From: Botryllus schlosseri
Taxonomy: Eukaryota
Direction of reading: 5' to 3'
Length of the DNA stretch: 64,000 bases
Assembly: GCA_051294905.1 (NCBI GenBank)
Contig: CM119371.1
Location: forward strand, 38,194,001 to 38,258,000
This document shows positions 576 through 37,730 of the stretch, one piece after another. How positions within the stretch are numbered: position 1 is the first letter of the stretch; every line of letters begins with the position of its first letter. The position numbers and the translations under genes were made by a program. Below the pieces are notes generated by a model. The model had not been told where the DNA came from, did not search any database, and worked only from the letters and a program-made list of their open reading frames with translations.

Positions 576-1455
576 TGAACACCACGCATCGAAAAACTTC
601 GCTGATTGCAATTGCTAAATGTGTGCGTTTGTTGATTGACGCTGAATTGGTATCTTTGAAATAATAATTATTAACCGACATCAATGCCAGCCTCGTTTAT
701 AAATAAACTATGCTGCGAGTACTATCTCGCGATATTATTGAAAATACTCGTGATATACTCATTTACGACTATGAAAATGTTGCTACTTTATCGTTCCCAA
801 TGACTATGAAAATTATTATATTTGGAACCACTACACATCGCCGATTTTAGGTTGAACATTGTGCCAATGAAAACGTAGCTTTCTCTTTACAAAATATATT
901 GACCCTACATTGCTTAACTAGACCAGTTATAGAACTTTTTCTCTCCTGCGAACTGTTTGCTCTGGTTAAACCTGTACTCTACCAAACGATAGCTGTCCCG
1001 ACAACCCATAGCCGCAGGCGCGTAACATCAGTGCCGATATCCAGTCTGGTTAAAAAGGTACGATAACGACAGAAAAGGAATCCGTCGTGAAAAAATCTGT
1101 CAACTCATTTAGCGGATCACCGGTTCGTTGAGGCAACCTCACATTCGGGAGAAACCGAAATACGCCATCTCATCCTTGCTGTTCATGTCATTGGGTGATA
1201 ATTTTCAGTTTTGAAACACGAGCAAGCGTAACACTGTATTGAAAAATATAGCAACATATAAAACGAAACTGAGCATTCACTTGCAGAAAATTACGACAAC
1301 GAAAGGAAATACGCCAAAATGGACAGGGATTTCAGTACTTGCAGACAGAAAATGTTGTACATGTTGTATATGTTCAATTGTTCATGCTGGCAGTATAGGC
1401 ACAATTGCTGCAAATGTACAGTGCATTTATGAACTTGATTTTCTTTAGTTACAGC

Positions 1456-2561
1456 TCAACGAACTTTTCTTTTGCATTTAGTTCCTCCTGGCTTGCTGCC
1501 ACTTCGTTTCGAAGGATTATGCGCCATCAATTGCCCATCAGTGGAGAGTGATAATGATTTAGGCAGCTTACAGGCTGTCGGGGCGGGAAAATTCATTAAC
1601 TGCTGAAATGAACGGTCTTGCTCGTCTTTTGGCATGTCGTCCCAATCCCAAGGAGATACCAAATACTTTTTACAATTCTCAGCAAGGGTAAAAGTACCAC
1701 GGCCTGTGATACTCTTTCGTACATCCAAGTATTGTGAAGTGATCGCTGATTTGAGTAGATTAATTAGATCTGGTAACTTTTTCTTTTTCCAATCTGTCAA
1801 TCGCTTGAGAACATGGTTCATGCTCTCGCAGTTGTTATTGGTGAACCATTTGTGCTCGGCGCCGATAAAGCTACGCATTTGCCAGACCTTTTTTCGCAAC
1901 AACGGTAGCAATCTATTTTGTAAGTATGTGACCAGCATTGGGCATATGCTATGGCACCTAGTGAGTAGGTCTTCTTCTCTTCGATTAAATTCAATTTCGT
2001 CCTTGCTATCCAACAGATTGAAGACTTGATTCACCAGACTTTTTCTCAAATGCTTGCTTGCACCGATGCCGTGCTGAAGTTTGTCGACCAAATTTGTCTT
2101 TAAATGATTGACACAGAGAACGTGCTTGCAGTTTTTGAACGAATTTTCTATTGCTGAGTGTAGTGCAATTTCGTCGTCTGTCCCCACGACAAGGTGATCG
2201 AAAGTACCTCCTATAACGGAGCTAAGATGACTGAAGAAGTCGTTAAATGTCCCTCTATCTGACCTATGGTGGAGATATATGGGACCAATGAAAATCGGAT
2301 TTTCCTGCGTTCTGGTGCTAATCATCTTCACGTTTTTGAAAACTGCTACAGTAGCGTACACATTGCCTAGGTTGTATGTCTTGTCAATTCCAAGTACAGT
2401 TTTTCCAGTACAACACATCTTTTTAAGATCTGTTATTTGATCATCGGTGTATACAATTATGCTGGATGCTTTTGCTGGAGAATGGATGACTCTTCTCACA
2501 AATTTTTCCGTGTGCATCATGTTTATGACATCCAAAAGTTCGTCTGCATAACAGTCTCGCG
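1456..2561 (-). pseudogene. C-terminal half of MULE transposase (DDE core), cut from its N-terminus by the Maverick insertion
   Basis: Motifs LGIDKTYN (D1), VGTDDEIAL (D2), HVLCVNH (CxxH), TNNNCESMN (E); frame is open up to the TSD and in phase with ORF 17493-19562. Confidence 0.9.
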
Positions 2562-3784
2562 AGTAGTTATATAGATCGGTCGTGACGGGCTATGGGGCTC
2601 TTATGGGCGGGGTGGCATGCTAACGAGAAACCGGGGGTGGCATGCTAACGTTTTCGTCTTATGGCGGGGGTGGCATGCTAACGTTTTCGTCTTATGGTGG
2701 GGGTGGCATGCTAACGTTTTCGTCTTATGGTGGGGGTGTCATGCTAACGTTTTCGTCTTATGGGTGCGGTCGCATGATAACGCGAAACTCGTGGTGACAT
2801 GCTAACGTTTTCGTCTTATGGGTGCAGTCGCATGATAACGCGAAACTCGTGGTGACATGCTAATGTTTTTGGTATACGTGCGGCGACATGCTAACGACGA
2901 TAAATGTGTCTGTCGTGTATTCTTACGGTATCTGTGGTGATTCACCATGTGTTCTTATGGGTGCGGTCGTGATTCGCACTTTCAGACATCTCTCGCGTGG
3001 TGTTGAATATGTACGAGTCACCAACAATAACCGCACAAACGGAAACGCGGTTTGTTGTGAGGATTAAGCAGTGCGACCTATATTTCGAATGACCTGCGTG
3101 CGGAATTGTTTCTCGTCCAGCCGCTACTATCGATGATTACACTATAGACCGGTCAGTGTGAAATAATTTGATCGTAAATTATAATATATGATGTAGTTTA
3201 GTCGTGTCAAATGACCGATCGTGTTCCTCGCTATTGATTGCCACCTGAATAATACTTTCGACTTATTCGCTGTTTCGCACCTATAGAATAGTCTGCTGTT
3301 CACAGTCGCAACAAGAATCACAAGTATACACATTTACACATTCGTTTATTACTCTGAAATCAAACTCTTCACAAAAGCACGTACAATCGTATCATTCACT
3401 TTTTTATCATCACCAAAATTATCCAAGTATTCCTCGGTTGAAAACCCTTGAGCTCTTTTTATCAAGAATGCGATAGCATGATCTCCACACACATCCGAAG
3501 TTTTACTCTGTAGCTGTTTCCCAGTCACAGAAAATTCATCCGACTCCAGGAATTGGAATATCCGAGGTTTTAGTGGTCCGAAACCTAGCGAATCATGAAA
3601 ATGAGTATCGTCATCTCTGTATATACACACCCAGTGAGACCCAGGCAAACTCGACTCGTCGTAATTAATGATGATAGCGAATTTTCCGCTAGTTGGTTTC
3701 TTTGGTAACTGGTCTACTGGATAAGTTCCTAGATATAGACTTCGTGTGTCAGGATGGTTATAGAGAATATCATTAATCTCAGAC
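2562..3784 (+). repeat. Left terminal inverted repeat of the Maverick (1223 bp)
   Basis: Reverse complement of 16275-17497; mirrored ORF coordinates all sum to 20059, so no indels; one mismatch noticed at 3775/16284. Confidence 0.95.
2608..2900 (+). repeat. Subterminal tandem repeats in the TIR (~30-bp GGGGTGGCATGCTAACGTTTTCGTCTTATG units and two ~59-bp units); mirrored at ~17160-17450
   Basis: Visible tandem units. Confidence 0.85.
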
Positions 3785-3900
3785 AGAGCCGGCGTAGACG
3801 GTGATTCCAATACCAACAACATGCTAACACTCCAAATAGGTGTGAAATAGTTTGCAAAGCCCCGCAATCGCTGACAACATAATGTCTCGGTCATAGCCAT
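3349..3900 (-). CDS. Second (TIR-borne) copy of the adenain-like cysteine protease with a foreign N-terminal extension
   Basis: Peptide identical to 16267-16710 from SEINDIL onward; GSHW, FHDS, QLQ and VCG motifs present; expression unknown. Confidence 0.7.
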   Translation of the reverse strand: MAMTETLCCQRLRGFANYFTPIWSVSMLLVLESPSTPALSEINDILYNHPDTRSLYLGTYPVDQLPKKPTSGKFAIIINYDESSLPGSHWVCIYRDDDTHFHDSLGFGPLKPRIFQFLESDEFSVTGKQLQSKTSDVCGDHAIAFLIKRAQGFSTEEYLDNFGDDKKVNDTIVRAFVKSLISE

Positions 3901-6900
3901 CTTTTGCGACTTGGCGCTACAGACATCGATCGCTCAAGCGTTGAAATTTTCGTAAGTAGTTTGTCACAGAACCGGATTTCACTGGTAAAATTTAATAAGT
4001 AACGAATAACAGAACCGTTGCAGCGGGTGATTGGAATACCGACAAATTATCACTTATTTCTGATCCAACCCTAATCCTTTGGGAAGTTGACGCTTATTCA
4101 AAAAGGTGTGAAATAATTGTAAAACCCTACGCCACTGACATGACAATGCATCAGACATAGCGATCTAGTTATAGCACGGGTCGGAATCCATTCGCGAGAT
4201 GTTCTATAGGTAAATTGAGATAATCCGAGACCGAATATTTTGACTTTGGCGTAGTGTGAATTGAAATAGGATTGACAAACATGACTACCATCTTTCCAAG
4301 TACCATTTCGATATTATACACACATTGATTTGAAACAAGTAATGGAACATTACAACTCTATTCACGATCCGACTTTCGGTTTGTCAAAGAGACATTTTAA
4401 CATCTTACCATACTCAAAAGAATTATTCATAATATTAACCGATGTTAAAAATATAGTTTTCACTTACTTGATTATATTACTACAACTTGTAAACTTTATT
4501 AATTCATCCTGGTGAACACGAATAGTGTTGCTTGCTTGTAATATTCACATATTGATCTGAATAATAACAACTCATGAGAACCTACAACTTTATTAACGAA
4601 CTAGTTATTTTTTACGAAACTGGAAATGCAAACTCTATTCGTCTCGACATCTCAACATCTTACAACACTCGAAAGAGTCAATTATGAAAACACTGCCAAG
4701 TAAATCCGTTGTACTGTAAAAGCGATTGATAGTTTTCACGACGCGACAACTACAAATCAATGCTTGCGACTTGCGACTAACATTGAGTGTACGAGATTTG
4801 AATATACGAAAAATAACCGAGAATTAATTTTTCGCAGATGAATCCGTATACTTTAATGTAAGCTATCATAAGACAAGTAAGTCCTTTACGATGACATTGA
4901 TTCACAATCCGATATTCTCATTATACACATTTTGAAATCCCATCATACCCATTTTCGAAATCAACTCTTAACGAAAATACGAATAGTCGTGGCAACTCGA
5001 TTATAATCAAAGTAATTCATGATTATACAGATTGTATTACACCCAACACCAAAACAAAAGGACTTTTTAGTTGATTAAATTCATATCATTCGTCTTCAAC
5101 TTGTGTCTTTTCTAGATTGCACGGACCAATTCGTTACGAGCGAGTTGCAACCAAAGTTAAGAAATCTTTGTGAAATCTTTGGATGAATATAGCTAACACA
5201 ATCACTTATCGCTGTTTCAAGTATTTCACAGGTGTGTCGCCTATCTAAAAGTATGCATGCGTTCGATTCCCGTACCGACTGTCGCGGTATTTATGAATTA
5301 AGGTAAAGATGAAGCACCAGTGTCGTTGCTGTCGGAATTCGTGACGGCGAATTGAAACATACACGCATTACACAGTGTGAAAATATCACTTTGGATATCG
5401 AAGGGTGATTAATACTTAATCCGTCCACACTCTCTATAGAACGCGCTAAATGTAAAATATCGTGAGGTTACACTCTAACACTTTGATCATTACAAAAGCA
5501 AATTGGTATATGTTTGCTAGAAGCATCCTGTTCAACTAGAAGTGTCTAGTACACAACACTCGTAATATCAAAGAAATACTTGCTACACTGTAATTCACTT
5601 AACGTGTTTTGCATTGTTGTTCATTTGTAGTATTGATTGTTTTTGAACCCCCAAATAATAATTCCCGACATGAAACCAAACCGCTGAAAGTCGTTACCAT
5701 CACAACGAAACAATTTGTACGATGTTTGTCAAATGCATCCTATAGTTAGGTGTACTAGAATTATTTGTGTAACACATACGCCGACAATGCAATCGAAAAT
5801 TTTTCCGTTGTCATTCGCTAAAGTAAATGTCATCACAATACTCATCAAGCTGTCATCTGTAAATCAAGATTACATCCAACTTGTAACTGTATCGTTTAAC
5901 TACCGGGTTGCATCAGTTTGCTATTTTTGTCATTTAGTGACTGCTAAACATACCAAACGATACACATTCACTTACGAAATACTGTGTTGGTCGTAATTTC
6001 CATCATCGTGATAATCGAAGTACATTTGTTTCGAATTCGTAACAGCCGACTATGACACGACGATCTTTGGAAAAGTTATGCTTGGAAGATTGGTTGTATA
6101 TCACGAAAAATAATTACCACTCATATTGATACTGTTATCCCTTGTTCGGTATTTTCAAACGAGTAAAATTTATTACTTGAGTTACTCCGCTTACTATATT
6201 CAAATGTAAACACAGCTGTCTTTCAACATCACAAAGACATCGATATAAAGTATACAATCAAACGCAACAAGTTTTACTTTTGTAGGACACTAATTATTAT
6301 TCCACGCATCTCATTTCATACTAAGTGTATATGAAAGATGTTCATGGTACACGAATATATTCGCTCATGCTACGAACATACGCAATGATTGGTGACGCTT
6401 TCACACTATTTCGATTTACTGTAACAAAAACAACAACAACAATTTTCACTCTCTTGACTTACGAAAACAACAGACGAACCTTCATTCAATATTTTGTTTT
6501 TGTCAACAAGTTACTTTTTCATGAGACCCCCACTACTCTTACAAAAGTACGAAAGATATTTACATCACACAAAGTAATCAACTTTACTCGATATTCTCAC
6601 ATTACGAAACTAAAGAATGGTTGGTTTGACTCTACAAACTGTTTCGTTACCTCAAGACCTTTATTGTCTGAATGGTTGTTCATGTGTCTTAAGAACCGAA
6701 TAGTTCAACACAGCACTAGTACCAACAGAAACATCAGAGTTGTTTGCACAAAAGTTTGTATGTGTACAGTATGCGAATACCATGTGTAAGTCCAGCACAA
6801 TTGCGGTATCCATCCGAGTTTAGTTAACACAAATTTATTACAACGGAGCCACGTAAACTTTCGTGAAAGAAAAGCATACTCACTTCCAGAGGGTTATTTC

Positions 6901-7639
6901 AACGCCATAGCAGTACTCCAACAACAAAGTACATATGTTTTCTAGTCACCGTCCTTACATATTTCACATAGATCAATCTACTTTGCTAACGAAAAGTGCT
7001 GAGTCACCACATGATTACCCTCACAACAAAACAGCTAGAAGATATTATCATACAAAAATATTTCTAACCCTTTGCGCACCAGTGACAAATCATACAACAA
7101 ACATTTTTTGTGAGGTGAATTGCTGTTCAGTGCCAAGTCTACCTGTTGAAACGTACATTAAAACAACACAGTCACAATTCAATTAAAACCACGAATCTAT
7201 TTTCATTTCGTTGCCTACAGAAAAATAAATTTTAATTTCCCAAAACATACTTGTAGTCAAGAAAAATTTTTATTAATCAAAATCATCGACTTCTGTTTAC
7301 GGTGTTAGTGTGCGCATGTCATACACGTGGGGACCGTATTAAAATGGACACGACACGACTGAATGTAAGGAGATAGAAGTCTATCGCATAGATTTACATG
7401 TGGTCTTCGCTATGGTTTCAAAAAACGAATCATCTCTTTTGCGTTGATCTAGACCGAGCAAGTTAGTTAATGGCCATGATTGTGTTTGTCATATGCGAAT
7501 GATAGGGTTACTGTCAAATCTACATACAACAACCTTCTGGTACTCAAAATAACAATTTCATTCTCTCCCTTCGTAGTCATATACCGCCAACTCGGCTTTT
7601 TTGTTCATCGACAGCGGCGTTTAACAAGACCAACTACAC

Positions 7640-8100
7640 TGAACCCACGACGTTTACCTATGTAAAATTACCACTTTCACTTGACAGTCCGTCGTTTACC
7701 TGGCTAAACATATCATTTTCCTTTGGAGATCTGATGTTTACCAAGAGTAAGAAACCTTTTTCACTTGGAAATCTATTTTTTCCCTGGGTAACAAACCTTT
7801 TTCACTTGGAAATATATTTTTTCTCTGGTTAACAAACCTTTTTTCACTTGGAAATATATTTTTTCTCTGGTTAACAAACCTTTTTCACTTGGAAATATAT
7901 TTTTTCTCTGGACAACAAACCTTTTCCCCCGGGTAACAAACCTTTTTCCCTGAGCAACAAGCCATTTTCACTTGGTGGTCCGTCGTTTACCTGAGTAAAA
8001 ATATCATTTTCCTTTGGGGATCTGGCGTTTACCCAGTGTAACAATACATTTTCTCTTGGTCATCTAGCTTTTCCTAGAGTAACAAAACCATTTTCATTTT
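7640..8100 (+). repeat. Internal tandem array of ~39-41-bp units (TTTCACTTGGAAATATATTTTTTCTCTGGTTAACAAACC-like)
   Basis: Near-identical units at ~7755-7925, more degenerate units on both sides. Confidence 0.8.
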
Positions 8101-8799
8101 GAAATCTGACAAACACGCCTGACAATTTGGTATTTGTTGTATTGACGATAGTTTGAAATAGATTACAACGAACAGTGACGGAAATATACACAGACTACCG
8201 GTTTCAGAGTATACCTGCATCAGTCGTATCACATCAATATCATCGGTTAACCACATACAATATGCTCTTGTACACCGAAATACATGTTTTGGAAAATTGG
8301 ACAATAGGCTTCGATAGTTCTGTGATGTCCGGGTTCGTGCTTTGGATTTTCCAGAGTCAAAATGTCTGAATAAAACACCTCCTTGACGATGGTTGGTATG
8401 TGGATAACGGTGTTCGGAAAACGGTTGGATTTATGTAACCCATCGCGATAACAACTCCAGGTCGAGTTTTCCTCCCGCACGTTTACTATATTGTGTCTTT
8501 ATTGGTCACTGTATGTCTCGACATTCAGTTTGAAATCGGAAACCCTGATAAAGTACGTAACCGGATCCGGATATCAACTGTGAATCGATAAACCAATGAA
8601 CAATATTCAAAGTAAACATGTTACACCCTGTGTTTCCACGACAAAATACCATCCAGACATACATCGCGCTTGTTTGCCCACACCAGTATACGCGCAAATG
8701 GAGGTGTGTGACATTGCATGCAATGTGTTGGTATACAAACATCGATCCACAGACATTATCATAACCGGTAATTTTGATGTAGATCGAATGTCACTCGAG

Positions 8800-9464
8800 A
8801 CAACTTTGCGAAAAATGTCTCAGACTGTCGACGCGCTGGGGATCGCGAGCCTAACATGGATATAATTGAGCTAACGCAAAAACTCGCTGCGAATTCTTGT
8901 TATGATTGCGAGTTAATGAATCCGCGTAAACTCAAACAAACCACGTTCTGTGATAAAAGTGAATTGGACGCAAATGTGGAGGATCGCTTTTTCATCAAGT
9001 GTGAACAATTAAACACAGATCTATTTGAAATAACGAAGCATCCTCAAAAGATCGAGCAAGATAACTGCATTCAAGTATCGTTCTGGTTGTATAATAATGT
9101 CAAATTACGGATGTTGTCGTTTTTTTATGATTGTTTATGCAAATATTTTCGAGCCGACTGCTTCATGCTACTTTCGATGGATATCAACTCGTTTTTCATC
9201 GCGCATTCAGCACCGCTCGATGATATTCTCATTTCCGAGAAAAGGAACGAATTTTACTGTGATTACGAGAATTGGTTTCCGCGTTATTTTTGTGATGAGC
9301 ATCGAAACGAATTCTTGACTGATCCGATTTCTTTTGACCGCTCGAGACAATGCTGTAAAGATGCGTATGCTCATTATCTTCATCAACCTGGTTTGATGGA
9401 AGTGAGATACGACGCCGATGCATCTTTCCACGCTCTCAATCGCTTTCACAGTGACCCAAGATAA
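8800..9464 (+). pseudogene. Truncated, degenerate protein-primed DNA polymerase B fragment
   Basis: In-frame FAKNVSDCRRAGD...KLAANSCYD (motif B KxxxNSxYG altered), KLRMLSFFYD, MDINS (motif C DTDS altered), PGLM; in-frame stop at 8775; no exonuclease or motif A region recognised. Confidence 0.85.
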
Positions 9465-10090
9465 AATAAATCACGGCGTTGAATGTTATTGTGGTGTACT
9501 TGTATATATTTTGTGTGACTTTAATTTATTTGTATATACTGTATGTTTGATGTGATTTATTTGTATTGTGTGTTCATGTATCATTTGTTTTCCAGATGGA
9601 TAACACTATTACCTATCTAAAGTCTGTCATGTCGTTAGATTTTAATGGTTTACATGTAGAGATGATTACCTTGGAGCGGGAATTACCACAGTTCACGATT
9701 CTTGGTTCTACCAAACAACCCCCAATGTCGATGATACCCGATTGATGAAAAGCAGACCACCAAAACTTGTGATCGTGGTAAGGTCTATAGTTTGGTATAG
9801 TAACACTGTTAGATTTTAAAGCGCTATGAACGTATTATGAATCCTCTTATGTGATTTATTATTTTACAGATTGGGATCAGCTGCTTGACGACCTGAAGCA
9901 TTCGTAACGCTACAACTTCCACTGACGATGAGAAACAGATGAAGATTTCATAACCCGGCGAAAATTGCTAAATCGAACTTTACTGGGTTTATATATTCCG
10001 CTAGAACAAGATGACTACAACAGTGGATATTCCCAACCTTGTTGATATATAAACACATGCACTTTATCGAGTTTCAATAAACAACAAACG

Positions 10091-10699
10091 ATGGAATTGA
10101 TCCACCCATTCGCGTGTATTGTGAGTGGTCCTTCAAGAAGTGGGAAGACTACTTTCGTTGCCAAGCTGATTAGACATGCGACATCAATGATTAAACCTAG
10201 TGTGTCCAGGGTCGTATATTGTTACAATAATTATCAGGAGGTTTTCAAGACGATGCATAACGTAGAATTCCACGCTGGTCTAGATATTTTAGAAGAGTTG
10301 AAGGTTTGCTCTGAAGACACCTTGATTATAGTGGATGATTTCATGACTGAGACAGCGAAAATTGCAGACTACTTTACAAGATTTTCTCATCATTCGGCAA
10401 AGTCAATTTGCTATATCACACAGAACCTGTATCACAAGGGTAAAGGAGCACGTGACTTGAGTCTTTCAAGCTCGTATATGGTGATTTTCAAGAATCCGCG
10501 CGACCAACAGCAGATCAGTTTTCTTGGTCGACAAATGTACCCAAACTCTAGATTTTTAACAGAGGCTTATCGTGACGCTGCTAGACGACCTCATAGTTAT
10601 TTATTCCTCGATCTCACGCAAGAAGCACCTGAAAATCGACGCGTTATGACCAATATATTCCCTGGTGAAACCATGGTGGTTTATAGCCCGATGGTATAA
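10091..10699 (+). CDS. Maverick packaging ATPase (A32/FtsK-HerA-like)
   Basis: Walker A GPSRSGKT, Walker B IIVDD, ITQN, FKNPRD, PHSYLFLDL. Confidence 0.95.
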   Translation: MELIHPFACIVSGPSRSGKTTFVAKLIRHATSMIKPSVSRVVYCYNNYQEVFKTMHNVEFHAGLDILEELKVCSEDTLIIVDDFMTETAKIADYFTRFSHHSAKSICYITQNLYHKGKGARDLSLSSSYMVIFKNPRDQQQISFLGRQMYPNSRFLTEAYRDAARRPHSYLFLDLTQEAPENRRVMTNIFPGETMVVYSPMV

Positions 10700-10703
10700 A
10701 TAG
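10694..10703 (+). promoter_or_regulatory. TATA-like box GTATAAATAG overlapping the ATPase stop, 30 nt before the next ATG
   Basis: Identical decamer overlaps the integrase stop at 12469-12478. Confidence 0.5.
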
Positions 10704-10732
10704 CCAAGCACAGAGACGACTTTAAACTCAAA

Positions 10733-11080
10733 ATGACCAAGGTACCAGCTCGGACACGGCGGCATATTCCCACACTAGAGTTCCTACATAAAAGTAAACC
10801 CGAGATACGCAAGCAAATTATATCGGGGGCCAGCAAAGAATTGATCGAGTGTATATGCGATTGTACAAAGAACATTTTAAACGGTAACATCCCTCTTTCA
10901 AAGTATAAAAGAAAGCGACTATCAGCTCATAAATGTAGTTTACGTCGACTTGTCAGGAAAGACATCCCTATTCGACATAAAAAACGTATGGTCAACCAGA
11001 ATGGGGGTATGTTTATGACTCTATTATCAAGCATCCTACCCGTCGTCACTGGTTTACTCGGTAATCTTTTCAAAAAATGA
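10733..11080 (+). CDS. PZ-like protein, N-terminal part (basic, ending in QxGG plus a hydrophobic/amphipathic helix)
   Basis: ICDCTKNILNGNIPLS...NQNGGMFMTLLSSILPVV pattern; position between ATPase and integrase. Confidence 0.8.
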   Translation: MTKVPARTRRHIPTLEFLHKSKPEIRKQIISGASKELIECICDCTKNILNGNIPLSKYKRKRLSAHKCSLRRLVRKDIPIRHKKRMVNQNGGMFMTLLSSILPVVTGLLGNLFKK

Positions 11081-11472
11081 CTTCTTTTAAAAAAATCTTC
11101 ATAAATCCGAGCCCGATCAACGGAGCTGACGTTCAGAAATTGAATTTGGATATCGACAAATGTATGAGCGACATATTACAGATGAACATACCCCAAGAAC
11201 GAAAATTAGCCTTATATAACGACGCACTAAATCGTTATCAAACAAAACACGACACACTGAATCAACCGATGAAAATCGATATATCAGAACAAAGGAATCT
11301 ATTTTCGGCTAGTGAGTTGGACGCACTGCGACGCCTGATCAAGGGTGAACCATCAAGGATTCCTATACCATCACCGAGTAGCCAACGAAGCAAAGTAAAG
11401 ACTCAGCATGCCAAGACGAAAAGCGGTCGTACACCCAAGACCCCGAGACGATACGGATGGGAGCCATACTAA
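11077..11472 (+). CDS. PZ-like protein, second part
   Basis: LDIDKCMSDIL...ERKLALYNDALNRY pattern; ATGA overlap with the upstream ORF. Confidence 0.7.
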   Translation: MTSFKKIFINPSPINGADVQKLNLDIDKCMSDILQMNIPQERKLALYNDALNRYQTKHDTLNQPMKIDISEQRNLFSASELDALRRLIKGEPSRIPIPSPSSQRSKVKTQHAKTKSGRTPKTPRRYGWEPY

Positions 11473-12478
11473 GTATTTCACGCCAGGGCTACCCGGTAGT
11501 TACCGCGGTGCATACGTATTCTCTAGAGGGCGGAATAGAACCAAAGTCAAGGAGTTTCTTTCGGGCAAGGACGCGTACACAAAACATTTTCCATATCGAA
11601 AGAAATTTAAGAGACCTAGAGTGATTACGTCCGGTCTTGGTGTTCAGTATCAAACCGATCTCATGCATATGCAAAACCTTTCAAAAGAAAACGATAATTT
11701 TAAATATGTGTTGGTGACGATCGATTGTTTCAGCCGATTTTTATATCTGTATCCGCTCAAGAACAAAACCTCGCAAGGTATTATTCGCGGATTCAAGGAA
11801 ATATTTAAGGAACGTATACCTCATGTTATTCAAAGTGATCAAGGTTCTGAGTTTACTAACCGTGCGTTTCAGACTTTCTTGAAAGAGAACAATGTGCGAC
11901 ATTTTCATACAAATAGTGAACTGAAAGCATCGATATGCGAGCGTGTTATTCGTACTGTGAAGCAAGTGTTATACCGTTATTTCACGCATAATAAGACTTT
12001 GAATTATGTCAGTGTCCTGTCTGAGATATGCCGGGGGTATAACACTACTTTTCACGTTGCTATAGGGTGTCCTCCAGCAGATGTTGATTATTCAAATCAA
12101 GAACAAATTTTCCACAGGTTATACGGTGACATGACCCCTAAAAAACCCAAACTAACTATCGGCACACCGGTCAGGATTTCGAAATCACGTGGTAATTTTG
12201 TAAAAAGTGCCTTGGCGAGTTGGACCGAAGAAATCTTTTTCGTATCTCAATGTCGTAAAGGTGACCCTCCTACTTATCAATTGAAAGACTACCATGGTGA
12301 AGTTATAGACGGTCGCTTTCAGGGTGAAGAGTTACAACCAATAACGAAAAATAATAATATTTACAATATCGAAAAAATCCTGTCTACTCGCAGGAAAGGA
12401 AAGAAAACGCAATATCTTGTAAAATGGTTGGGTTATCCGTCTACATTTAATTCTTGGGTCTCGGATTTGTATAAATAG
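11408..12478 (+). CDS. Retroviral-like DDE integrase (c-integrase) with C-terminal chromodomain
   Basis: YQTDL (D), IQSDQGSEF (D), ICERVIRT (E); YNIEKIL...YLVKWLGYPSTFNSWV chromodomain. Confidence 0.97.
   Translation: MPRRKAVVHPRPRDDTDGSHTKYFTPGLPGSYRGAYVFSRGRNRTKVKEFLSGKDAYTKHFPYRKKFKRPRVITSGLGVQYQTDLMHMQNLSKENDNFKYVLVTIDCFSRFLYLYPLKNKTSQGIIRGFKEIFKERIPHVIQSDQGSEFTNRAFQTFLKENNVRHFHTNSELKASICERVIRTVKQVLYRYFTHNKTLNYVSVLSEICRGYNTTFHVAIGCPPADVDYSNQEQIFHRLYGDMTPKKPKLTIGTPVRISKSRGNFVKSALASWTEEIFFVSQCRKGDPPTYQLKDYHGEVIDGRFQGEELQPITKNNNIYNIEKILSTRRKGKKTQYLVKWLGYPSTFNSWVSDLYK
12469..12478 (+). promoter_or_regulatory. TATA-like box GTATAAATAG overlapping the integrase stop
   Basis: Same decamer as 10694-10703; ATGs at 12488 and 12506 follow. 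Confidence 0.5.
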
Positions 12479-12487
12479 ACACCGAAA

Positions 12488-12721
12488 ATGTTGTTCAACC
12501 AAACTATGGATTCTGATTCCGTCTCATCTCGCATGGGCCAAGTCTCGAACAGTCTGAAAAACCAGATTGTGTTTATTGTACAGATTTGTATGTTAGTGTG
12601 TGTAATCGTGTTTTCCTTATATCAAATTTCTGTCGGGGTGGATCGTGAGATATATTTAACGCTACTGTCTTCTTCACTTGGGTATTTATTACCGAATCCA
12701 TCACCTCATCGTATATGTTGA
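12488..12721 (+). CDS. Small two-helix membrane protein of the Maverick
   Basis: Two hydrophobic segments ending LLSSSLGYLLPNP; fills the gap between integrase and minor capsid. Confidence 0.7.
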   Translation: MLFNQTMDSDSVSSRMGQVSNSLKNQIVFIVQICMLVCVIVFSLYQISVGVDREIYLTLLSSSLGYLLPNPSPHRIC

Positions 12722-12734
12722 AAGAAACAATAAA

Positions 12735-13565
12735 ATGTTGTTGACTCTACCTTCGAATGCGAGTTTGGATAAATTTCCGAATACTAGCACAGATTTTCAA
12801 ACGGAACTTTACAAAGAATTAGAAATGAATCGCCATGAGCTAGGATTATGTGAGCTGACCTTCCCCAATGATTTTCAACCGCGAATTGAAGTGACAGCGA
12901 AAAGTATCGGTTTTGGATTTGTCGATGCGAATGGATACACCGATCGGTATTATATTCCCGAAGGCTCGTATTACAGCATCGGTGAAATGTTAGAATCGTA
13001 CGAGAAATATTACATGGGGGACATTTTCATTTTACAAGGATTCGGAGACTTTAGAATCACATTCAGAAGATTAGTCACGAGTAAAAAAAGATACAAGCGG
13101 GGTGTACCCATAAATACCGATACCACAGACTCTAGCGTCAAACACATACCCCGTACCACGCATGATTCACCCGAGCCTTACGGACTGATACCACTTGGTT
13201 CTGTGTTGGACACAATAACATTTAGACGCGTTGTATCTCGTCGCCGCGGAGTGGTAGAATTTATATTTACACCCGCGATAAAGTTGGAACGGATTGATAA
13301 GGTTTATGTGTATTGTGATCTGATACAACCAAGACCACACGGTAACAAGCTGCAACAACTTTTACGGGTGGTTACTGTAACCGCTAAACCGAATGAAAAC
13401 CAAATCAACATATTCCCAAAACCATACTTCTTTGCTTTAGCGAAAAACAATTTTAGAACAATACGAATTTATCTACGTGATGCGGCTGGCAACCCTATTA
13501 AATTTCGAAAAGCACCAGTGACAGTGACCCTACGCTTCCGTCGTAGAGCTGTTGATTCAATATGA
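12735..13565 (+). CDS. Minor capsid (penton-like) protein 1
   Basis: LTLPSNAS..FPNT start; VYVYCDLIQP..GNKLQQLLRVV...PYFF...IRIYLRD..G.PI.F C-terminus; ATG at 12735. Confidence 0.88.
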   Translation: MLLTLPSNASLDKFPNTSTDFQTELYKELEMNRHELGLCELTFPNDFQPRIEVTAKSIGFGFVDANGYTDRYYIPEGSYYSIGEMLESYEKYYMGDIFILQGFGDFRITFRRLVTSKKRYKRGVPINTDTTDSSVKHIPRTTHDSPEPYGLIPLGSVLDTITFRRVVSRRRGVVEFIFTPAIKLERIDKVYVYCDLIQPRPHGNKLQQLLRVVTVTAKPNENQINIFPKPYFFALAKNNFRTIRIYLRDAAGNPIKFRKAPVTVTLRFRRRAVDSI

Positions 13566-14233
13566 GTTACATCACGTTATCTGGCACCCAAGGTGAATTC
13601 TCGGTGGTGTTACCGAATGAAATTATTTGTAATGAACTCGCATTGATGGATATGAGTTTTGTCAGTGAATCTCTTGATCGAATTATAATCAATCACGATC
13701 AAGCACTCTGGGAGCTACATAATGAGAAAGATCGAATAGTAGATGCGTACCTAACACCACTTGGGAATTATGCAAACAACCTCGAGTTGACGCGAAGAAT
13801 ATTAGCTGAAAGTTTCAAACACTGTTTCACCGAAAGAATCAACGATGAACTTTTCCGAATTCGTTACTCGAAACGTATCACACTCCACCCCACGGATATA
13901 TTCACGAATTATTTCAGTGTAGTTGATCAAGTGTCGACGCCAGTATGTAATGTCACGTCAATCAAACCTAAACCAACTCAATCCCACCTCAGATATCTTT
14001 TTGTGTATATCAATGTACTACGACATCATCCGGTGGGTGATTACATGAGTCAATTGCTTCGTGTGATCCAAGTAAATAACGAGACGTGTATGAGACAAGA
14101 AGTTGTATATGAAAAACCTTTTTATTTCCCAGTATCGATTAACCACATCCGCGATATAAAAATCACCATCCGGGATCAATACGGTCAGTTAGTGCATGAT
14201 ATAGAGACCACATTGACACTCCACGCACGATGA
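13562..14233 (+). CDS. Minor capsid (penton-like) protein 2
   Basis: ELALMD; YLFVYINV..HPVGDYMSQLLRVI...PFYFPV...IKITIRDQYG. Confidence 0.8.
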   Translation: MSYITLSGTQGEFSVVLPNEIICNELALMDMSFVSESLDRIIINHDQALWELHNEKDRIVDAYLTPLGNYANNLELTRRILAESFKHCFTERINDELFRIRYSKRITLHPTDIFTNYFSVVDQVSTPVCNVTSIKPKPTQSHLRYLFVYINVLRHHPVGDYMSQLLRVIQVNNETCMRQEVVYEKPFYFPVSINHIRDIKITIRDQYGQLVHDIETTLTLHAR

Positions 14234-14625
14234 AAATAGTGACGTTAACCACCTCTATGCTTGGTGTTGATTTTGAACACAGACTACTCACCATCAACAA
14301 CATCCCGACAAGATATTGTGAATTAGCCCTCATGGAGATCGATTTCACTTTAACCGAACCGGTGATTGGTCAATATTTGTTTGTGTATTGCGATATTATT
14401 CACCCTCACTTACTTGGAGATGTGTTAGCGCGTTTATTACGAGTTATACCGCTGACACCTGGTGATGTCACGCATAATTGGGTAGCGACAAATCCGTATT
14501 ATTTCCCTGTTTCAAAAGATGTTGTAGATTCTGTATGTCTTTACCTCAGGGATGAGTTTGGGGAACCTATAAATATAATAAGTCGTTCATTGCAAGCTAC
14601 ATTTAACATTAGGAAGCGATTATGA
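14230..14625 (+). CDS. Minor capsid (penton-like) protein 3, minimal core without central insert
   Basis: ELALME; YLFVYCDII.P.LLGDVLARLLRVI...PYYFPV...LYLRDEFGEPI. Confidence 0.8.
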   Translation: MKIVTLTTSMLGVDFEHRLLTINNIPTRYCELALMEIDFTLTEPVIGQYLFVYCDIIHPHLLGDVLARLLRVIPLTPGDVTHNWVATNPYYFPVSKDVVDSVCLYLRDEFGEPINIISRSLQATFNIRKRL

Positions 14626-14993
14626 AAGTTGTTTTCACGTGTGATCATCATTCTGTCCATCGTCATTATAACCAGACAGGTGATGGTTATGGATATTTTA
14701 GCGGTGGAGTTCAAGCCGGTTCCGGTATTGGGAGTTTGTTTAAATCACTCGGTCGTTTAGTGACACCTATTGCGAAATACGCCGGCGGTCAATTGTTACG
14801 GACTGGAGGTGAAATAGCGAGAGATCTATTACGGGGTAACTCGATCAAGTCTAGTGTTGTCAAGAGAAGTAAACAAGCTGGTGGTCGAGTGATTGATAAA
14901 ATTTTAACCCCAAAAGCTATAAAAAGGAAAAAAACAAAGTCAAAGAACACTTCATCCAAACGTCGTCGTAAACAACAGGATATATTCGACTAA
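14622..14993 (+). CDS. PW-like basic putative core protein
   Basis: YNQTGDG..F.G..QAGSGIGSLFKSLGR; K/R-rich tail ending DIFD; lies just before the major capsid gene. Confidence 0.85.
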   Translation: MKVVFTCDHHSVHRHYNQTGDGYGYFSGGVQAGSGIGSLFKSLGRLVTPIAKYAGGQLLRTGGEIARDLLRGNSIKSSVVKRSKQAGGRVIDKILTPKAIKRKKTKSKNTSSKRRRKQQDIFD

Positions 14994-14998
14994 GAACT

Positions 14999-16270
14999 AT
15001 GTTGATGCACGCAGGTTCCCGAGAATGTCATAACTCGGGATTAAACATATTTAGTATACCCCACACACAAACCAGTATTGAGGAATCGCAATATGTCGTC
15101 GTCAAACCCCATAGTTTAGGTAATGTCATGGAAGTACAATTACCAAGGACGGATCGATATATGGATCTACAAAACACGTTCTTGAGATTACGTTTGAAGC
15201 TCACTAAACGCGATGGAACTGATTTAGCAAACGATACACAAGTGGGCCTGGTCAATAACATGTTGGATTCTCTTTTCAAACAAATCGATGTAACTATTTC
15301 AAATGAGGTTATCACAAATTCGGATAATTGTCATGCGTACAAAGCTTATATCTCTCGGTTGTTGAATGATACTCACGAGGCCTCGGAGAGTTTTGTGCAA
15401 GGACAAGGTTTTTATAAAGATGTCGCTGGATCTATGGATGTTCTTGGTGCAGCGAATACTGGATATGTTAAACGAAAAGACCTTACAAAAAACAGCACTC
15501 CGTTAGAGTTGATCGGAAAAATTCGAATGGGTCTTTTTGAACAGTCTAGATGTATGTTGGATAATGTCGACATGAAATTAAAATTTACACGTAACGAAGA
15601 TAATTTCTGTCTGCTCGGTGATGCGGAAGATGTACAAATTGTTTTACTCGAAATGGAGGTGTATGTCAAACAGATGAAGATCGCTGAAAGTGTAAGCTTG
15701 GCACACAAGTCTGTATTACAGAAGAATACTGCAAAGTATCCCTGGATACGCTTACAAATGTCGACTCATACATTCGCGGCGGGCTTGTCGAAAATTGATA
15801 GAGAGTTAGTTAGCGGCACCATGCCAAAGAAGATCGTAATTGGTTTAGTTGAGACCACGACATTTAACGGTGTTCGGACCAAAAACCCATTCAACTTTAA
15901 ACACTTTGATGTTCAAAATCTTTCGTTAAGTGTGGATGGGCGTCAAATTAACGGACGCGAATTTCATTTCGATTTTGATAAACATGGCGGACTCGAAGGA
16001 TATATGGCACTATTCTCTCAGACAGGTCGCTGGGAATCCGAGGCACCTTTAAATATTTCACGCAAAGATTATGTCAATGGATACACTCTTTTTGTGTTTG
16101 ATTTGACGCCCGATAATAGTTTGGGATGTTATCAACTTCATAAGACAGGAACTGTGCATCTGGTTTTGACTACATCGAAGCCGTTACCAACCTCCGTAAC
16201 CTTGTTATGTTTGAAGGAGTTTCAACATCTTCTACAACTGAATCAAAAAAGACAAGTCGTCGAAATATGA
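14999..16270 (+). CDS. Major capsid protein (PY, double jelly-roll)
   Basis: LNIFSIPHTQTSIE, NNMLDSLFKQIDV, AYKAYI, PKKIVIGLV, NPFNFKHF, GYTLFVFDLTPD. Confidence 0.95.
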   Translation: MLMHAGSRECHNSGLNIFSIPHTQTSIEESQYVVVKPHSLGNVMEVQLPRTDRYMDLQNTFLRLRLKLTKRDGTDLANDTQVGLVNNMLDSLFKQIDVTISNEVITNSDNCHAYKAYISRLLNDTHEASESFVQGQGFYKDVAGSMDVLGAANTGYVKRKDLTKNSTPLELIGKIRMGLFEQSRCMLDNVDMKLKFTRNEDNFCLLGDAEDVQIVLLEMEVYVKQMKIAESVSLAHKSVLQKNTAKYPWIRLQMSTHTFAAGLSKIDRELVSGTMPKKIVIGLVETTTFNGVRTKNPFNFKHFDVQNLSLSVDGRQINGREFHFDFDKHGGLEGYMALFSQTGRWESEAPLNISRKDYVNGYTLFVFDLTPDNSLGCYQLHKTGTVHLVLTTSKPLPTSVTLLCLKEFQHLLQLNQKRQVVEI

Positions 16271-16710
16271 ATACGTCTGAGATCAATGATATTCTCTATA
16301 ACCATCCTGACACACGAAGTCTATATCTAGGAACTTATCCAGTAGACCAGTTACCAAAGAAACCAACTAGCGGAAAATTCGCTATCATCATTAATTACGA
16401 CGAGTCGAGTTTGCCTGGGTCTCACTGGGTGTGTATATACAGAGATGACGATACTCATTTTCATGATTCGCTAGGTTTCGGACCACTAAAACCTCGGATA
16501 TTCCAATTCCTGGAGTCGGATGAATTTTCTGTGACTGGGAAACAGCTACAGAGTAAAACTTCGGATGTGTGTGGAGATCATGCTATCGCATTCTTGATAA
16601 AAAGAGCTCAAGGGTTTTCAACCGAGGAATACTTGGATAATTTTGGTGATGATAAAAAAGTGAATGATACGATTGTACGTGCTTTTGTGAAGAGTTTGAT
16701 TTCAGAGTAA
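16267..16710 (+). CDS. Adenain-like cysteine (maturation) protease, 147 aa
   Basis: ATG overlaps the capsid stop (ATGA); MNTSEI, YPVDQLP, GSHW (His), HDSLG (Asp), QLQ...VCG (Gln, Cys). Confidence 0.95.
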   Translation: MNTSEINDILYNHPDTRSLYLGTYPVDQLPKKPTSGKFAIIINYDESSLPGSHWVCIYRDDDTHFHDSLGFGPLKPRIFQFLESDEFSVTGKQLQSKTSDVCGDHAIAFLIKRAQGFSTEEYLDNFGDDKKVNDTIVRAFVKSLISE

Positions 16711-17497
16711 TAAACGAATGTGTAAATGTGTATACTTGTGATTCTTGTTGCGACTGTGAACAGCAGACTATTCTATAGGTGCGAAACAGCGAATAAGTCG
16801 AAAGTATTATTCAGGTGGCAATCAATAGCGAGGAACACGATCGGTCATTTGACACGACTAAACTACATCATATATTATAATTTACGATCAAATTATTTCA
16901 CACTGACCGGTCTATAGTGTAATCATCGATAGTAGCGGCTGGACGAGAAACAATTCCGCACGCAGGTCATTCGAAATATAGGTCGCACTGCTTAATCCTC
17001 ACAACAAACCGCGTTTCCGTTTGTGCGGTTATTGTTGGTGACTCGTACATATTCAACACCACGCGAGAGATGTCTGAAAGTGCGAATCACGACCGCACCC
17101 ATAAGAACACATGGTGAATCACCACAGATACCGTAAGAATACACGACAGACACATTTATCGTCGTTAGCATGTCGCCGCACGTATACCAAAAACATTAGC
17201 ATGTCACCACGAGTTTCGCGTTATCATGCGACTGCACCCATAAGACGAAAACGTTAGCATGTCACCACGAGTTTCGCGTTATCATGCGACCGCACCCATA
17301 AGACGAAAACGTTAGCATGACACCCCCACCATAAGACGAAAACGTTAGCATGCCACCCCCACCATAAGACGAAAACGTTAGCATGCCACCCCCGCCATAA
17401 GACGAAAACGTTAGCATGCCACCCCCGGTTTCTCGTTAGCATGCCACCCCGCCCATAAGAGCCCCATAGCCCGTCACGACCGATCTATATAACTACT
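16275..17497 (-). repeat. Right terminal inverted repeat of the Maverick (1223 bp)
   Basis: Reverse complement of 2562-3784. Confidence 0.95.
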
Positions 17498-19373
17498 CTC
17501 GCGACAGGCTACTGTGCCCTTCTTTGCTTACTTTTTCCCGGTGCTTAGTGTGGTGGATCTGACTTATATTCCGAGGCATTTGCGAAATACTTTCGGAATC
17601 ATTTTGAAGATCAACGTAAACTCGCTTTCCTGTCCCGTATGTAACCTTTTCCTTTATCTTCTCAATAGTGCTGGGCGGAGTGCGGATGTAATTTTGAAAG
17701 TTCACAGAGCTGTTTCCGTGTGGACTGCAGTCCCCAGATATACCCTTGTACTCCACGATACACACATTACATGGATCCGATGGTCCGCTTTCAATCCAGC
17801 TTATACGTTTTTCGTAACCAGGGTTGTTCTTTGATTTAGCGTAGTATCGCCCAACCATGAGTACGTCACCTGGAGAAGGCTGCGGTGATAACGGCAAGTA
17901 CTCCTTCATTTTTAGGGTACAAATAGCACCCCTGTGGCACCGCGGCTTGTATACATACCTGAGTCGGTCCTCGGTCTTCAAGTAATATGAATATGTTTGC
18001 TTGGTTTTCGTCCAAGCTCCCATGTCATCATAAAATATGCGATGAATTTTAGCAGCCTTTCGAAGTATGTTTGTTTTAAAATCAACGATAATGTAACAAT
18101 TGTCTTTCCGTCCTGGAGGAATCTTCGAAAGGGCGTTTTTACAATCCATAATTTTTTTCACCACATCCTCAATTTTCAAAAACTCGTTAAAGGGCAGCTT
18201 CGTTTCATTGTTCAGCTCATTGTTCAGGTTAGGTAGAACTGATTTGGTTTTGTCTCCGTCAGCAACTTCTCCTATTTCAGAATTCATCTGTTCCCCATTC
18301 ATTTGGTCAATAGGCGAATCTTCACTTAGGATACTGCTTTCTAGGAGCGAATGCTGTTGTTTATTAGCATTCACATCGCCAAGTTCGCTCTTATGAAACG
18401 TTTTGAAGTCGTCTTGTTCGCGTATATTCGGCTTGTCAATGTCGTCTTTTTCGCGTACATTCGGCTTATCAATGTCGCTTTTCTGATCCTCCGATTTCAG
18501 TTTTGATTCGCATAAACTATTTGGATCACTTGAAATCAGATCGGTGATTTTGATGATTGGCACGAAGTGATTCGGTCGAAATGGATTGCTTGTCGTGGGC
18601 ACGGTAGTTTGTGTCCACATCAGAGTCGCAACTGGTATGGCAAATTTCGACACACCCCGGCCGCAACATTTGCGCGTGAACGGTTCTGTCAGGTATTCAT
18701 TTGCCAATGTTGACGGATAATATGAGCGAATCGCGGAGCCAAGGGCGGCACTCAATGCGTAAATATGCATCATCTCGGACCAATGCCCCGGAATGCTTGC
18801 TTTTTGTACCAGACTGGCATAAGGCGATGACACAATTCTAACGTCAGCTATAAGGTCAACAAATCCCTCTGCGTCTTCGTCATAATATTTCGGATGCTCA
18901 ATAATTTCGAGCGCGGTCAGAAGCCTCAAGCGCAAGTGGTGTTTCGCAGTGCCGTATAAGGCAAGCGACATTGCGCGGTAAAAACAATTCCCATCGCCAT
19001 CAACTCGCAAGGCCGTGTGATCCGTGGTGATGATATAATGAAACTGCTTCAAAATCATAAGTGAAACCTCATCCACTACTGCTGCCTCATTTGGCATGCT
19101 CCGATCAGGCTCGAGTACTTTATACAAACGAAGAATCCGTTTTATAGCTGTACAATGTTCCGGATTTGCTCTAATATGTTGCAATGCCCACTCATAATTG
19201 AATTCACCTTCGAAGAATATGCAACAACGACATATGAAAATCTGGATTTTCCGCTCATTGAAGCTACCGATCTTCGCACAAGAACAGTGAGAGTATCTGT
19301 TGCATTCGTAGCATTCGACGTACTCGTCGGACTTTAAACAATCAAGTCCGCAAACAGTACAAGGATGAGACAT
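17498..19373 (-). pseudogene. N-terminal half of MULE transposase: PHD finger, OTU-like (vertnin-like) cysteine protease and linker; ends at the Maverick junction
   Basis: CTVC...C..C..YSHC.C...CRCC PHD pattern; VDGDGNCFYRAMS and PNHFVPI OTU motifs; first ATG 19373 (frame open from 19562); the TAG stop comes from the Maverick end. Confidence 0.85.
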
Positions 19374-20737
19374 AATCCAAGACGAAAACGCAACGTTGTT
19401 GCGGAAAAAACAATGAGAATTGCTATCCTTTCCACTGTCCTTCGCTACCTCAAATGATGACCCCAATGGGATTGCTACGAGCGCTGCCGCGCGGGGAAAG
19501 TTGCAAATTTTGCACAATTTCTGAAGCGAGGGGACGTCACAATCAGGTTCTTTGATAAACACATGTTAACTCTGTGGTGACGTGGTGACGTTGCAACTCT
19601 ACCTCAAGTACACGTACAAATGTATCGATATGTGAATTACAAAATTAATGTTAGAGACAATTAGTCACACTTATCAGTGGTCACACTAACGTAGTAGGTT
19701 GGTATTAATGGTGTTTCTACAACTATAGGATGGTCATTGGTCATTTTACACCAGGCTGGTATTCGTTATTACGGTTCCTGATCCACCGACTATTATGGGT
19801 CGGGGCCTTTGCAAGACACCGTCTACGCGGATCGTACGAGCAGTACAAGCCCACACCCTAAACCAGAAACACTTGGGTAGGAATACTGGAACCGACTTGG
19901 GCCTGATTCGAACCCCCAACCAATTCGTTTTGCAGCTGCGGAGCTGTGAATAGGCTATATTCAAGCGAACTAAAGCGGAACTAGTCAAGTATATTCCGCG
20001 CTAGTTAAGCATTATTCTTGTCGGATATTATAATAAAAGATCACGAGCGTGAATGCGTTACGACTCGCTAGTCGATAGGCTATACCTTGCCCCTCCCTGT
20101 GAAATATTATAAAGCAGAAATGATACGTGAATATCCCAATTCAGCGCAGCAAATATATGCAATTACAAAGTAGTACATATCCGGACGTTTTCAACTTTAG
20201 TTTACTCATTGCTCATTATCAGGATGACAATGGTGCCGATGTCTCACTAGTACGTCATTTAGGTTTCGCAAAGGTAACGAAAAAGAAGTCTTCCCAATTT
20301 TGAAATTATGCGCAGAATGATTCAGTTCTAAAGAAAACGATCAATAATCTAAATTATAATCTGTCGATCATGATGTGAAGTTTATTTGTAAAATAAAAAT
20401 TACTGTCAAGCCCGCAACCAATATCCTCGCGAATTCGGTTTACCAGACATATCGCGTTCCGAAACGGGTTAATCCAGTTTTGTATGATGCGTTGATTGAT
20501 AGCAGGCATGCTGGAGCTTGTGAGACAATGCTGTTTTCAAATCCTCCTTGCCTTCCTAACTAATTACCATCAAGAAATGAACTCCCTTTGAAACGTCGTT
20601 GATGTTCAATGTTCATGTTCGTTCACGCTATCAAATTCAGTTTGCGAACATAACCGGCCACATTATCATGTTAGGCATGCTGGCACTTTAGCACCGAGTA
20701 GGCAGAAAAACTTCGTCAGAGATCACCGCTGTATGTA

Positions 20738-21001: not shown

Positions 21002-21179
21002 CTGTCGGTGCCGTCAAATCTTCCGGTTTGCAGGGTGCAGTTAGGTCTGAATTGGCACTATTGCAATCATAATTCAAAAATCCCTATTGAGAATCGAATA
21101 TCCAGATTCTAAACTTGGATTTAAAATTTCGGATTTGATACATCCAGAATCATATGAGCAAAATACTAATCTGGACTTA

Positions 21180-36401: not shown

Positions 36402-37730
<1,329 letters not shown>

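Follow-up and report, generated by a model that had tools for sequence, protein, structure and literature searches.

A polymerase-truncated Maverick nested in the transposase gene of an OTU-bearing MULE in the genome of Botryllus schlosseri

Two nested elements and the uninterrupted site

We analysed a stretch of 64,000 nucleotides from the genome of Botryllus schlosseri (assembly GCA_051294905.1, contig CM119371.1; G000:C1:38194001-38258000), referred to throughout as the window, in which two transposable elements lie one inside the other (Table 1). The outer one is a Mutator-like element (MULE) whose transposase carries an OTU-like protease domain, and the inner one, inserted within the transposase gene, is a virus-like element of the Maverick/Polinton kind. 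The genome searched for related copies comprised 495.5 Mb. Both junctions of the inner element were read directly: on the left, ...aacagt is followed by CTCGCG and then by the Maverick tip AGTAGTTATATAGATC..., and on the right the other tip, ...GATCTATATAACTACT, is followed by CTCGCG and acaggc, with 14,936 bp between the two hexamers. The direct repeat of CTCGCG is a target duplication of 6 bp, and the termini of the insert read AGTAGT...ACTACT; a 6-bp duplication and the end motif (AGT)2//(ACT)2 are given as hallmarks of Mavericks in the excerpted text of a vertebrate survey (PMC8097293). The ends of the insert are long inverted repeats. An automated search paired 2554-3784 with 16275-17505 (arms of 1231 nt and a rounded identity of 100%, the duplication bases included), and by direct count the ends are perfect for 1,213 bp inward from the tips, with a single mismatch over 1,223 bp.

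Uninterrupted copies of the host MULE display the site as it is without the Maverick. A genome search with the 400 bp to the left of the junction returned 25 candidates, the window and 24 other loci, all of which were scored, and the 1.5-kb surroundings of each locus were compared with both MULE flanks and with the Maverick end. At 16 of the 24 other loci the left and right flanks overlap by exactly CTCGCG, so that the hexamer occurs once; these loci comprise seven full-length-type copies (99.3-100% identity), two copies of a deletion derivative (99%) and seven members of a subfamily (83-90%). The other eight loci are fragments that do not contain the insertion site, and no Maverick was found at this site in any of the 24 other MULE loci recovered by the flank search.

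The same copies bear on the reading frame. On the minus strand, the open reading frame (ORF) at 17493-19562 terminates in ...GHSSLSRE*, its TAG stop codon sitting within the Maverick tip, and the ORF at 1456-2535 resumes the transposase frame beyond the Maverick. In a MULE copy on C12 (L026) the site is spanned by a single 991-codon ORF, which encodes ...KEGHSSLSRDCYADELLDVINMM... at this point. When the two window pieces are translated separately, with no join between them, the N-terminal one (625 residues) and the C-terminal one (367 residues) both match the L026 ORF at 100% identity; the sum of 992 compared with 991 codons reflects one codon that falls in the duplicated 6 bp. The insertion point is thereby placed between codons 625 and 626 of the transposase ORF, upstream of the catalytic domain. 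Because both halves are 100% identical to the ORF of an intact paralog, the host gene was intact when it was hit.

An earlier sequence-only reading of this DNA had proposed that a Maverick sits inside a MULE transposase gene, that removing it together with one CTCGCG restores a single frame, and that the host copy was intact at the time. The borders, the duplication, the gene content and the uninterrupted paralogs uphold the first proposal. The second is matched by natural paralogs, one of which has the 991-codon ORF and shows the predicted peptide itself (...LSRDCYADELLDV...). The third agrees with the identity of both ORF halves to the intact paralog. Uninterrupted MULE copies, proposed there as a check, do exist, with CTCGCG once at 16 of the 24 loci, and the junctions that it had set at 2555 and 17504 were right to within a few bases of the duplication copies listed in Table 1.

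The host MULE begins 124 bp before the window (G000:C1:38193877) and runs to window position 21647, which gives 21,771 bp for the composite of MULE and Maverick and about 6.7-6.8 kb for the MULE without the insert and one CTCGCG. For comparison, the intact C12 copy (L026:2124-8783) measures 6,660 bp and has TTAAAAAT as its 8-bp duplication; the first 63-64 bases compared at each end of the host MULE are identical to it. Both arms of the MULE are present, as the sequence-only reading had held, and they are accompanied by an 8-bp duplication, GTTTCTAG. The left end (window -123 to 352) and the right end at 21189-21647 form an inverted pair of 483 bp with 89% identity, and inverted ends of 483-514 bp with 89-90% identity between the two ends are found. 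Duplications of 8 bp were read at four loci (GTTTCTAG, TTAAAAAT, CCCTATGC and CGACTCGG), and their length lies within the 8-11 bp that, along with long inverted ends, are ascribed to MULEs in the excerpted part of PMC6446971.

Annotation of the split host transposase draws on Pfam and on homologs. The OTU match (E 3.8e-5, 24.6 bits) is just above its cut-off of 23.3 and the Transposase_mut match is just under its own. Nine homologs were found at E-values from 5e-45 to 6e-106, of which five carry PF10551 and two carry OTU according to precomputed tables. The blocks DKTYNL, GTDDE, C..HL and TNNNCESxNH are visible in their alignment, and the D, D and E motifs (DKTYNL, GTDDE and NNNCES), which we take to be the catalytic triad of MULEs, are kept in all 10 sequences; an OTU region can be seen in six of the nine homologs. 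With PF10551-bearing homologs and these conserved motifs, the protein is a Mutator-type DDE transposase. The host element belongs to a type of MULE that was known before: an OTU-bearing one, MuDR-6_HM of Hydra, is already listed in Table 1 of PMC6446971.

The first 60 residues of the transposase (ORF at L026:3523-6498, minus strand; window 19194-19373, minus strand) are rich in cysteine and follow the pattern C..C...C..C..H..C. This start is absent from all nine aligned homologs and has no Pfam name; it could form a small zinc finger.

Table 1. Features of the host MULE and of the inserted Maverick, in window coordinates.
Feature	Position	Strand	Basis
Host MULE, outer element	1..21647 (starts 124 bp before the window)	-	both ends start GGGTGCCTTTATTTTG
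MULE left inverted end, part within the window, with short AGCTAATGAAA-type subrepeats	1..352		pairing with right end; subrepeat arrays
MULE transposase, C-terminal 367 codons: catalytic domain with DKTYNL, GTDDE, C..HL and TNNNCESMNH motifs	1456..2561	-	weak Pfam MULE match; 100% to end of L026 ORF
Left CTCGCG duplication copy of the Maverick	2556..2561		junction reading and comparison with uninterrupted copies
Inserted Maverick/Polinton, polymerase-truncated hybrid, AGTAGT...ACTACT tips	2562..17497	+	ends, duplication, genes
Maverick left inverted end, 1,223 bp, with 33- and 58-bp subrepeats and part of the second protease copy	2562..3784		
Segment equal to one arm of gene-less palindromic Maverick satellites	3171..8798		98.4% over 5,661 bp
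Predicted protease ORF duplicated in the left end, where its N-terminus differs	3349..3900	-	residues in common with ORF 16207-16710
Polymerase B (protein-primed) remnant, last 221 codons only	8778..9464	+	221/221 identical to residues 894-1114 of the C13 copy
P-loop ATPase, predicted packaging ATPase	10091..10699	+	Pfam AAA_14 E 4.4e-5 and Pox_A32 E 0.0082, both under cut-offs
Integrase with C-terminal chromodomain, 356 codons	11408..12478	+	Pfam rve E 2.6e-16 and Chromo E 1.4e-8, both above cut-offs
Three tandem ORFs of 295, 223 and 131 codons with a shared C-terminal domain of ~75 residues	12678..14625	+	pairwise E 2e-11 and 3e-13
Major capsid protein, double jelly-roll, 423 codons	14999..16270	+	structure model and fold matches
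Predicted adenain-like cysteine protease, 167 codons	16207..16710	+	language-model search
Maverick right inverted end	16275..17497		
Right CTCGCG duplication copy of the Maverick	17498..17503		junction reading and comparison with uninterrupted copies
MULE transposase, N-terminal 625 codons: Cys-rich start, OTU-like protease domain, conserved middle	17498..19373	-	Pfam OTU; 100% to L026 residues 1-625
MULE right inverted end	21189..21647		inverted-repeat pairing
Right copy of the 8-bp MULE target duplication GTTTCTAG	21648..21655		left copy just before the window

Gene content and hybrid structure of the inserted Maverick

The right part of the insert carries genes typical of Maverick/Polinton elements. 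Its integrase belongs to the rve type (60.2 bits against a cut-off of 32.6). The capsid gene was assigned from a structure model built on 50 aligned homologs (predicted local distance difference test score 92.7, predicted template modelling score 0.90), which predicts the double jelly-roll fold of major capsid proteins. Foldseek placed this model beside capsid proteins of iridovirus (E 4.5e-16), Sputnik (3e-14) and mavirus (3e-12), within a range of 1e-12 to 5e-16 that includes PBCV-1, and matches in BFVD were to capsid proteins of adomaviruses, virophages and MELD viruses. The Pox_A32 match of the predicted packaging ATPase is weak at 16.1 bits against a cut-off of 22.8. Three tandem ORFs stand between the integrase and capsid genes and have the motifs ...LLRV.. 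and ..PYYFPVS... in common; no Pfam match above cut-off was found for them, the 223-codon ORF giving one weak match to DUF4049 (E 0.0025), and we would only guess that they encode a virion protein. The clusters nearest to the predicted protease ORF in the Atlas are named 'Adenovirus endoprotease' (score 0.97; 13-38% of their members carry Peptidase_C5), which serves as a lead only; the ORF has no Pfam match, and a sequence search of the PDB returned a chance match (E 0.69). Because the 1.2-kb inverted ends take in most of this gene, it is present twice.

Genome searches on the Maverick side scored 40 of 1,091 termini and 40 of 144 capsid genes. The 13 sampled elements of the family for which both ends were available all have identical 6-bp duplications and AGTAGT/ACTACT tips. 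At least 144 candidate copies of the capsid gene were found, of which the 40 that were scored show 97-100% identity along their full length; the family is both large and young.

The inserted Maverick is a defective member of this family. Gene-carrying siblings on C3, C8, C13 and C10 match the window from 8799 or 9777 to 17497 at 96-98%, and they share the outermost 750 bp of the left end as well. What separates these common parts in the siblings is a different segment of 5.8-6.3 kb with an ORF of 1,114-1,280 codons, which in the 1,280-codon version of the C3 sibling matches Pfam DNA_pol_B_2 (E 9.5e-8). Compared with the 1,114 codons of the C13 sibling, about 890 polymerase codons are gone from the window copy, which retains the last 221 only and thereby lacks the polymerase expected of a complete Maverick/Polinton. 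The sequence-only reading had called the insert a Maverick; it belongs to the Maverick family, but it is not a complete element.

In place of the polymerase, the left part of the insert has the sequence of a gene-less satellite. Window positions 3171-8798 match both inverted arms (5.66 kb each) of a palindromic element without genes on C8 (C8:16509794-16522136) at 98.4% identity; these arms end at the same base, 8798, at which the window copy switches to its gene-carrying part. Between 3900 and 8778, no ORF of more than 154 codons was found. Palindromic Maverick satellites of this type form at least 13 inverted pairs in the genome, and the copies on C6 and C4 have Maverick tips and 6-bp duplications. 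Among the 40 hits that were scored, of 1,190 candidates, the 8798/8799 junction is unique to the window, all others matching one side only, and no microhomology was found when it was looked for at this breakpoint. The inverted ends also differ, at 1.2 kb in the window copy versus 758 bp common to the ends of the gene-carrying siblings, and the arm of the C8 satellite is only 90.6% like the identical 1.2-kb end stretch of the window copy. Taken together, these comparisons indicate that the guest is a hybrid of a left satellite arm of 5.6 kb and a right gene-carrying Maverick of 8.7 kb. The hybrid may have formed, and its ends may have been homogenised, while satellite and helper were copied together as free DNA. 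This would have preceded integration, an order in keeping with the single duplication that surrounds the entire element.

A further copy on C24 (L044/L046, G000:C24:275526-292188), of satellite or Maverick type and with the duplication CCCCCA, has a tandem array with a period of ~177 bp filling both of its 1.5-kb flanks.

Beyond the two elements, the only ORF of at least 200 codons in window 21700-64000 is an uninterrupted one of 434 codons at 36402-37706 on the minus strand, which encodes an AAA ATPase of the 26S proteasome regulatory subunit 7 type (Pfam AAA 5e-42, PRS7_OB 1.6e-37). Having no introns, it could be a retrocopy or a single-exon gene.

A probably recent insertion, target choice and alternative explanations

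We consider it about 90% probable that the locus records an ordinary nested insertion, in which a polymerase-truncated Maverick was integrated, likely recently and by a Maverick integrase, at codon 625/626 of an otherwise intact and recently active OTU-MULE, inactivating this MULE copy. The rve-type integrase, encoded either by the element itself or by any of the many gene-carrying copies, would have produced the staggered 6-bp cut that this family typically makes. The insertion is likely to be young because the inverted ends differ at 1 position in 1,223 bp and the duplication is perfect, in line with what the sequence-only reading had claimed about its age. The host is also close to other copies: its MULE flanks are 100% identical to the copies on C14, C12 and C5, and several copies of the family show 100% identity over 2.4-2.5 kb. 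A 2,752-bp internally deleted derivative of the MULE stands at two loci (L070:3530-6281 on C16 and L071:3499-6250 on C2) with differing 8-bp duplications, CCCTATGC and CGACTCGG, and other short derivatives are each present at three to four loci, with marker spacings of 1,033-1,040 and 1,372-1,454 bp. The MULE family is active. Because the same deletion derivative occurs at two loci with different 8-bp duplications and other derivatives are recurrent, defective copies are evidently moved in trans, which holds for elements of 1-2.8 kb.

Several points weigh against this reading. The age is judged by sequence identity alone. The Pfam MULE match of the host transposase spans the whole model (1-99/99) but, at E 7.4e-5 and 23.6 bits, stays under the cut-off of 27.6. 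The results that the composite stands at one locus and that the Maverick does not target the MULE rest on samples for the Maverick side, while the MULE side was fully scored. Among short assembled contigs of public runs, none was found with at least 31 letters on both sides of either junction, which leaves the junctions without independent confirmation; contigs in runs X16, X17 and X18 (left) and X2, X16 and X18 (right) run from MULE flank to MULE flank, which is explained by the other MULE copies.

The choice of target was examined with 30 sampled Maverick-family termini, representing about 16 elements. The only ones that lie in the MULE are the two of the window itself, and two others gave weak matches of less than 90 bp; the Maverick does not favour this MULE, and the sampled copies offer no second case of the kind that the sequence-only reading had suggested looking for. 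The duplications have a feature in common. CG occupies positions 3-4 in 9 of 13 elements (TCCGCT, CTCGCG, CACGTG, GACGTG, GACGCG, AACGCC, GTCGTC, GTCGGT and ATCGTA; termini L028-L057 and the window), and three of the other four have TG there, with a CpG frequency of 4.4-4.7% in the window and the sampled flanks. We suggest that the site would have been used since it fits a loose NNCGNN preference, and not for being a MULE.

Another view of the target is that the chromodomain of the integrase steers the Maverick to silenced, repeat-rich chromatin, in which case landing in a transposon would be expected. Chromodomain integrases of chromoviruses target heterochromatin, the integrase here has a chromodomain above the Pfam cut-off, one sampled insertion lies in the ~177-bp tandem array and one in the MULE, and a few flanks have short repeats in common. 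Nevertheless, only 2 of about 16 sampled elements stand in a recognisable repeat, and the clearest feature of the sites is at the level of sequence, namely the CG at positions 3-4. We therefore regard such steering as unlikely, though it fares best among the alternatives.

The sequence-only reading had further proposed that the composite could be moved in trans as a unit of more than 21 kb. Stated fully, the 21.8-kb composite would move, or have moved, by means of a MULE transposase supplied in trans, and the 8-bp duplication would have been made by the composite itself. Such movement would have what it needs in several respects, as the two MULE ends are intact and so is the 8-bp duplication, the compared tip bases are identical to those of an intact copy, at least one MULE copy has the full 991-codon ORF, and defective MULEs (the 2,752-bp derivative at two loci and the others at three to four) are mobilised in trans. 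Teratorn, as presented in the excerpted text of PMC6431247, is a precedent for the fusion of a transposon with a virus. Against this, the composite is found at one locus and at none of the 24 others, which leaves the proposal a pure inference. The spacing of left and right MULE markers across seven full-length-type copies is 5,145-5,158 bp in five, 5,605 bp in one and 20,100 bp in the window, with no comparable gain of about 15 kb in any other marker pair. The derivatives that recur all measure only 1.0-2.8 kb, whereas the composite is three times the length of a full MULE. Its sole transposase ORF is split and ended by the TAG from the Maverick tip, so that it carries no working transposase. 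Finally, insertion of a plain MULE followed by integration of the Maverick explains everything in fewer steps, and movement of the composite as a unit is, in our judgement, very improbable.

Equally far-fetched is the extension of this idea to an incipient fusion of transposon and virus, in which a Maverick-derived genome between working MULE ends, in a genome whose MULE transposase demonstrably moves defective copies in trans, could spread by cut-and-paste without a polymerase of its own, in the manner of Teratorn, with a guest that is a natural hybrid of helper and satellite. A Teratorn-like element would be expected at several loci, and the same composite was found at one only.

An assembly artefact, in which a repeat-induced misjoin placed a Maverick copy inside a MULE copy, deserves consideration since each element has many copies nearly identical to it, a setting in which assemblers err, and since neither junction is bridged by an independent contig. 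A misjoin, however, would not place a complete element with both true tips at a single point of the MULE, nor would it repeat on either side precisely those 6 bp that are single in the 16 uninterrupted copies, at the length which the family always duplicates (13 of 13). A matching hexamer at both ends would arise by chance once in 4096 and here falls, in addition, at the same point of a known sequence, so that neither chance nor a misjoin is credible as its source; such an artefact is the least likely of the explanations weighed so far. Capture of the Maverick by the MULE in the style of Pack-MULEs was rejected, as the guest ends in true tips on both sides and is flanked by a 6-bp duplication of its own.

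Relation to known systems and significance

The locus is a genuine, ordinary nested insertion, and this kind of event is well known; nested insertions have reportedly been described in MULEs of maize and rice. As in nested insertions generally, a guest with its own target duplication splits a gene of the host while the ends of the host remain intact. It departs from the usual examples in pairing a virus-like Maverick as guest with an animal OTU-MULE as host, and no description of a Maverick inside a MULE was found in the literature searched on Mavericks/Polintons, MULEs and nested insertions.

The guest agrees with animal Maverick/Polinton elements (Kapitonov and Jurka 2006 and Pritham et al. 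2007, as cited in PMC6431247; vertebrate survey PMC8097293; both sources represented by excerpts) in its 6-bp duplication, long inverted ends with (AGT)2//(ACT)2 tips, rve integrase, double jelly-roll capsid, P-loop ATPase and predicted adenain-like protease, and in the polymerase B of its siblings. Unlike them as portrayed in those excerpts, the window copy keeps 221 polymerase codons, its left 5.6 kb are a non-coding satellite arm, and its 1.2-kb ends include the protease gene twice. The host resembles MuDR-6_HM of Hydra in having a Mutator-type transposase fused to or accompanied by an OTU protease domain (PMC6446971, in excerpt). The window's family has 8-bp duplications, ends of ~500 bp built from subrepeats and the additional Cys-rich N-terminus; it is set beside MuDR-6_HM by description and not by sequence. 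Teratorn, the fusion of piggyBac and a herpesvirus in teleosts (Inoue et al. 2017, via the excerpted PMC6431247), likewise holds a virus-like genome between the ends of a cut-and-paste transposon, but it has a working transposase and, in some fish genomes, multiple copies according to that excerpt, whereas the composite in the window has a broken transposase and is single-copy.

If the composite did move by way of the MULE, the Maverick would gain a second, cut-and-paste route of mobility, as the herpesvirus in Teratorn was given one by piggyBac, and finding the composite at a second locus would mean that a Maverick is carried by a cut-and-paste transposon. In the event of an incipient fusion, the hybrid guest would show that helper and satellite recombine during copying. 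As an ordinary nested insertion, the locus is a marker of what would be very recent activity of both Mavericks and MULEs in this animal genome and a natural knockout of one MULE copy, and the presence or absence of the insertion can be scored in populations. That the guest is a hybrid, and that its family has a target preference centred on CG, may be of greater interest than the nesting itself.

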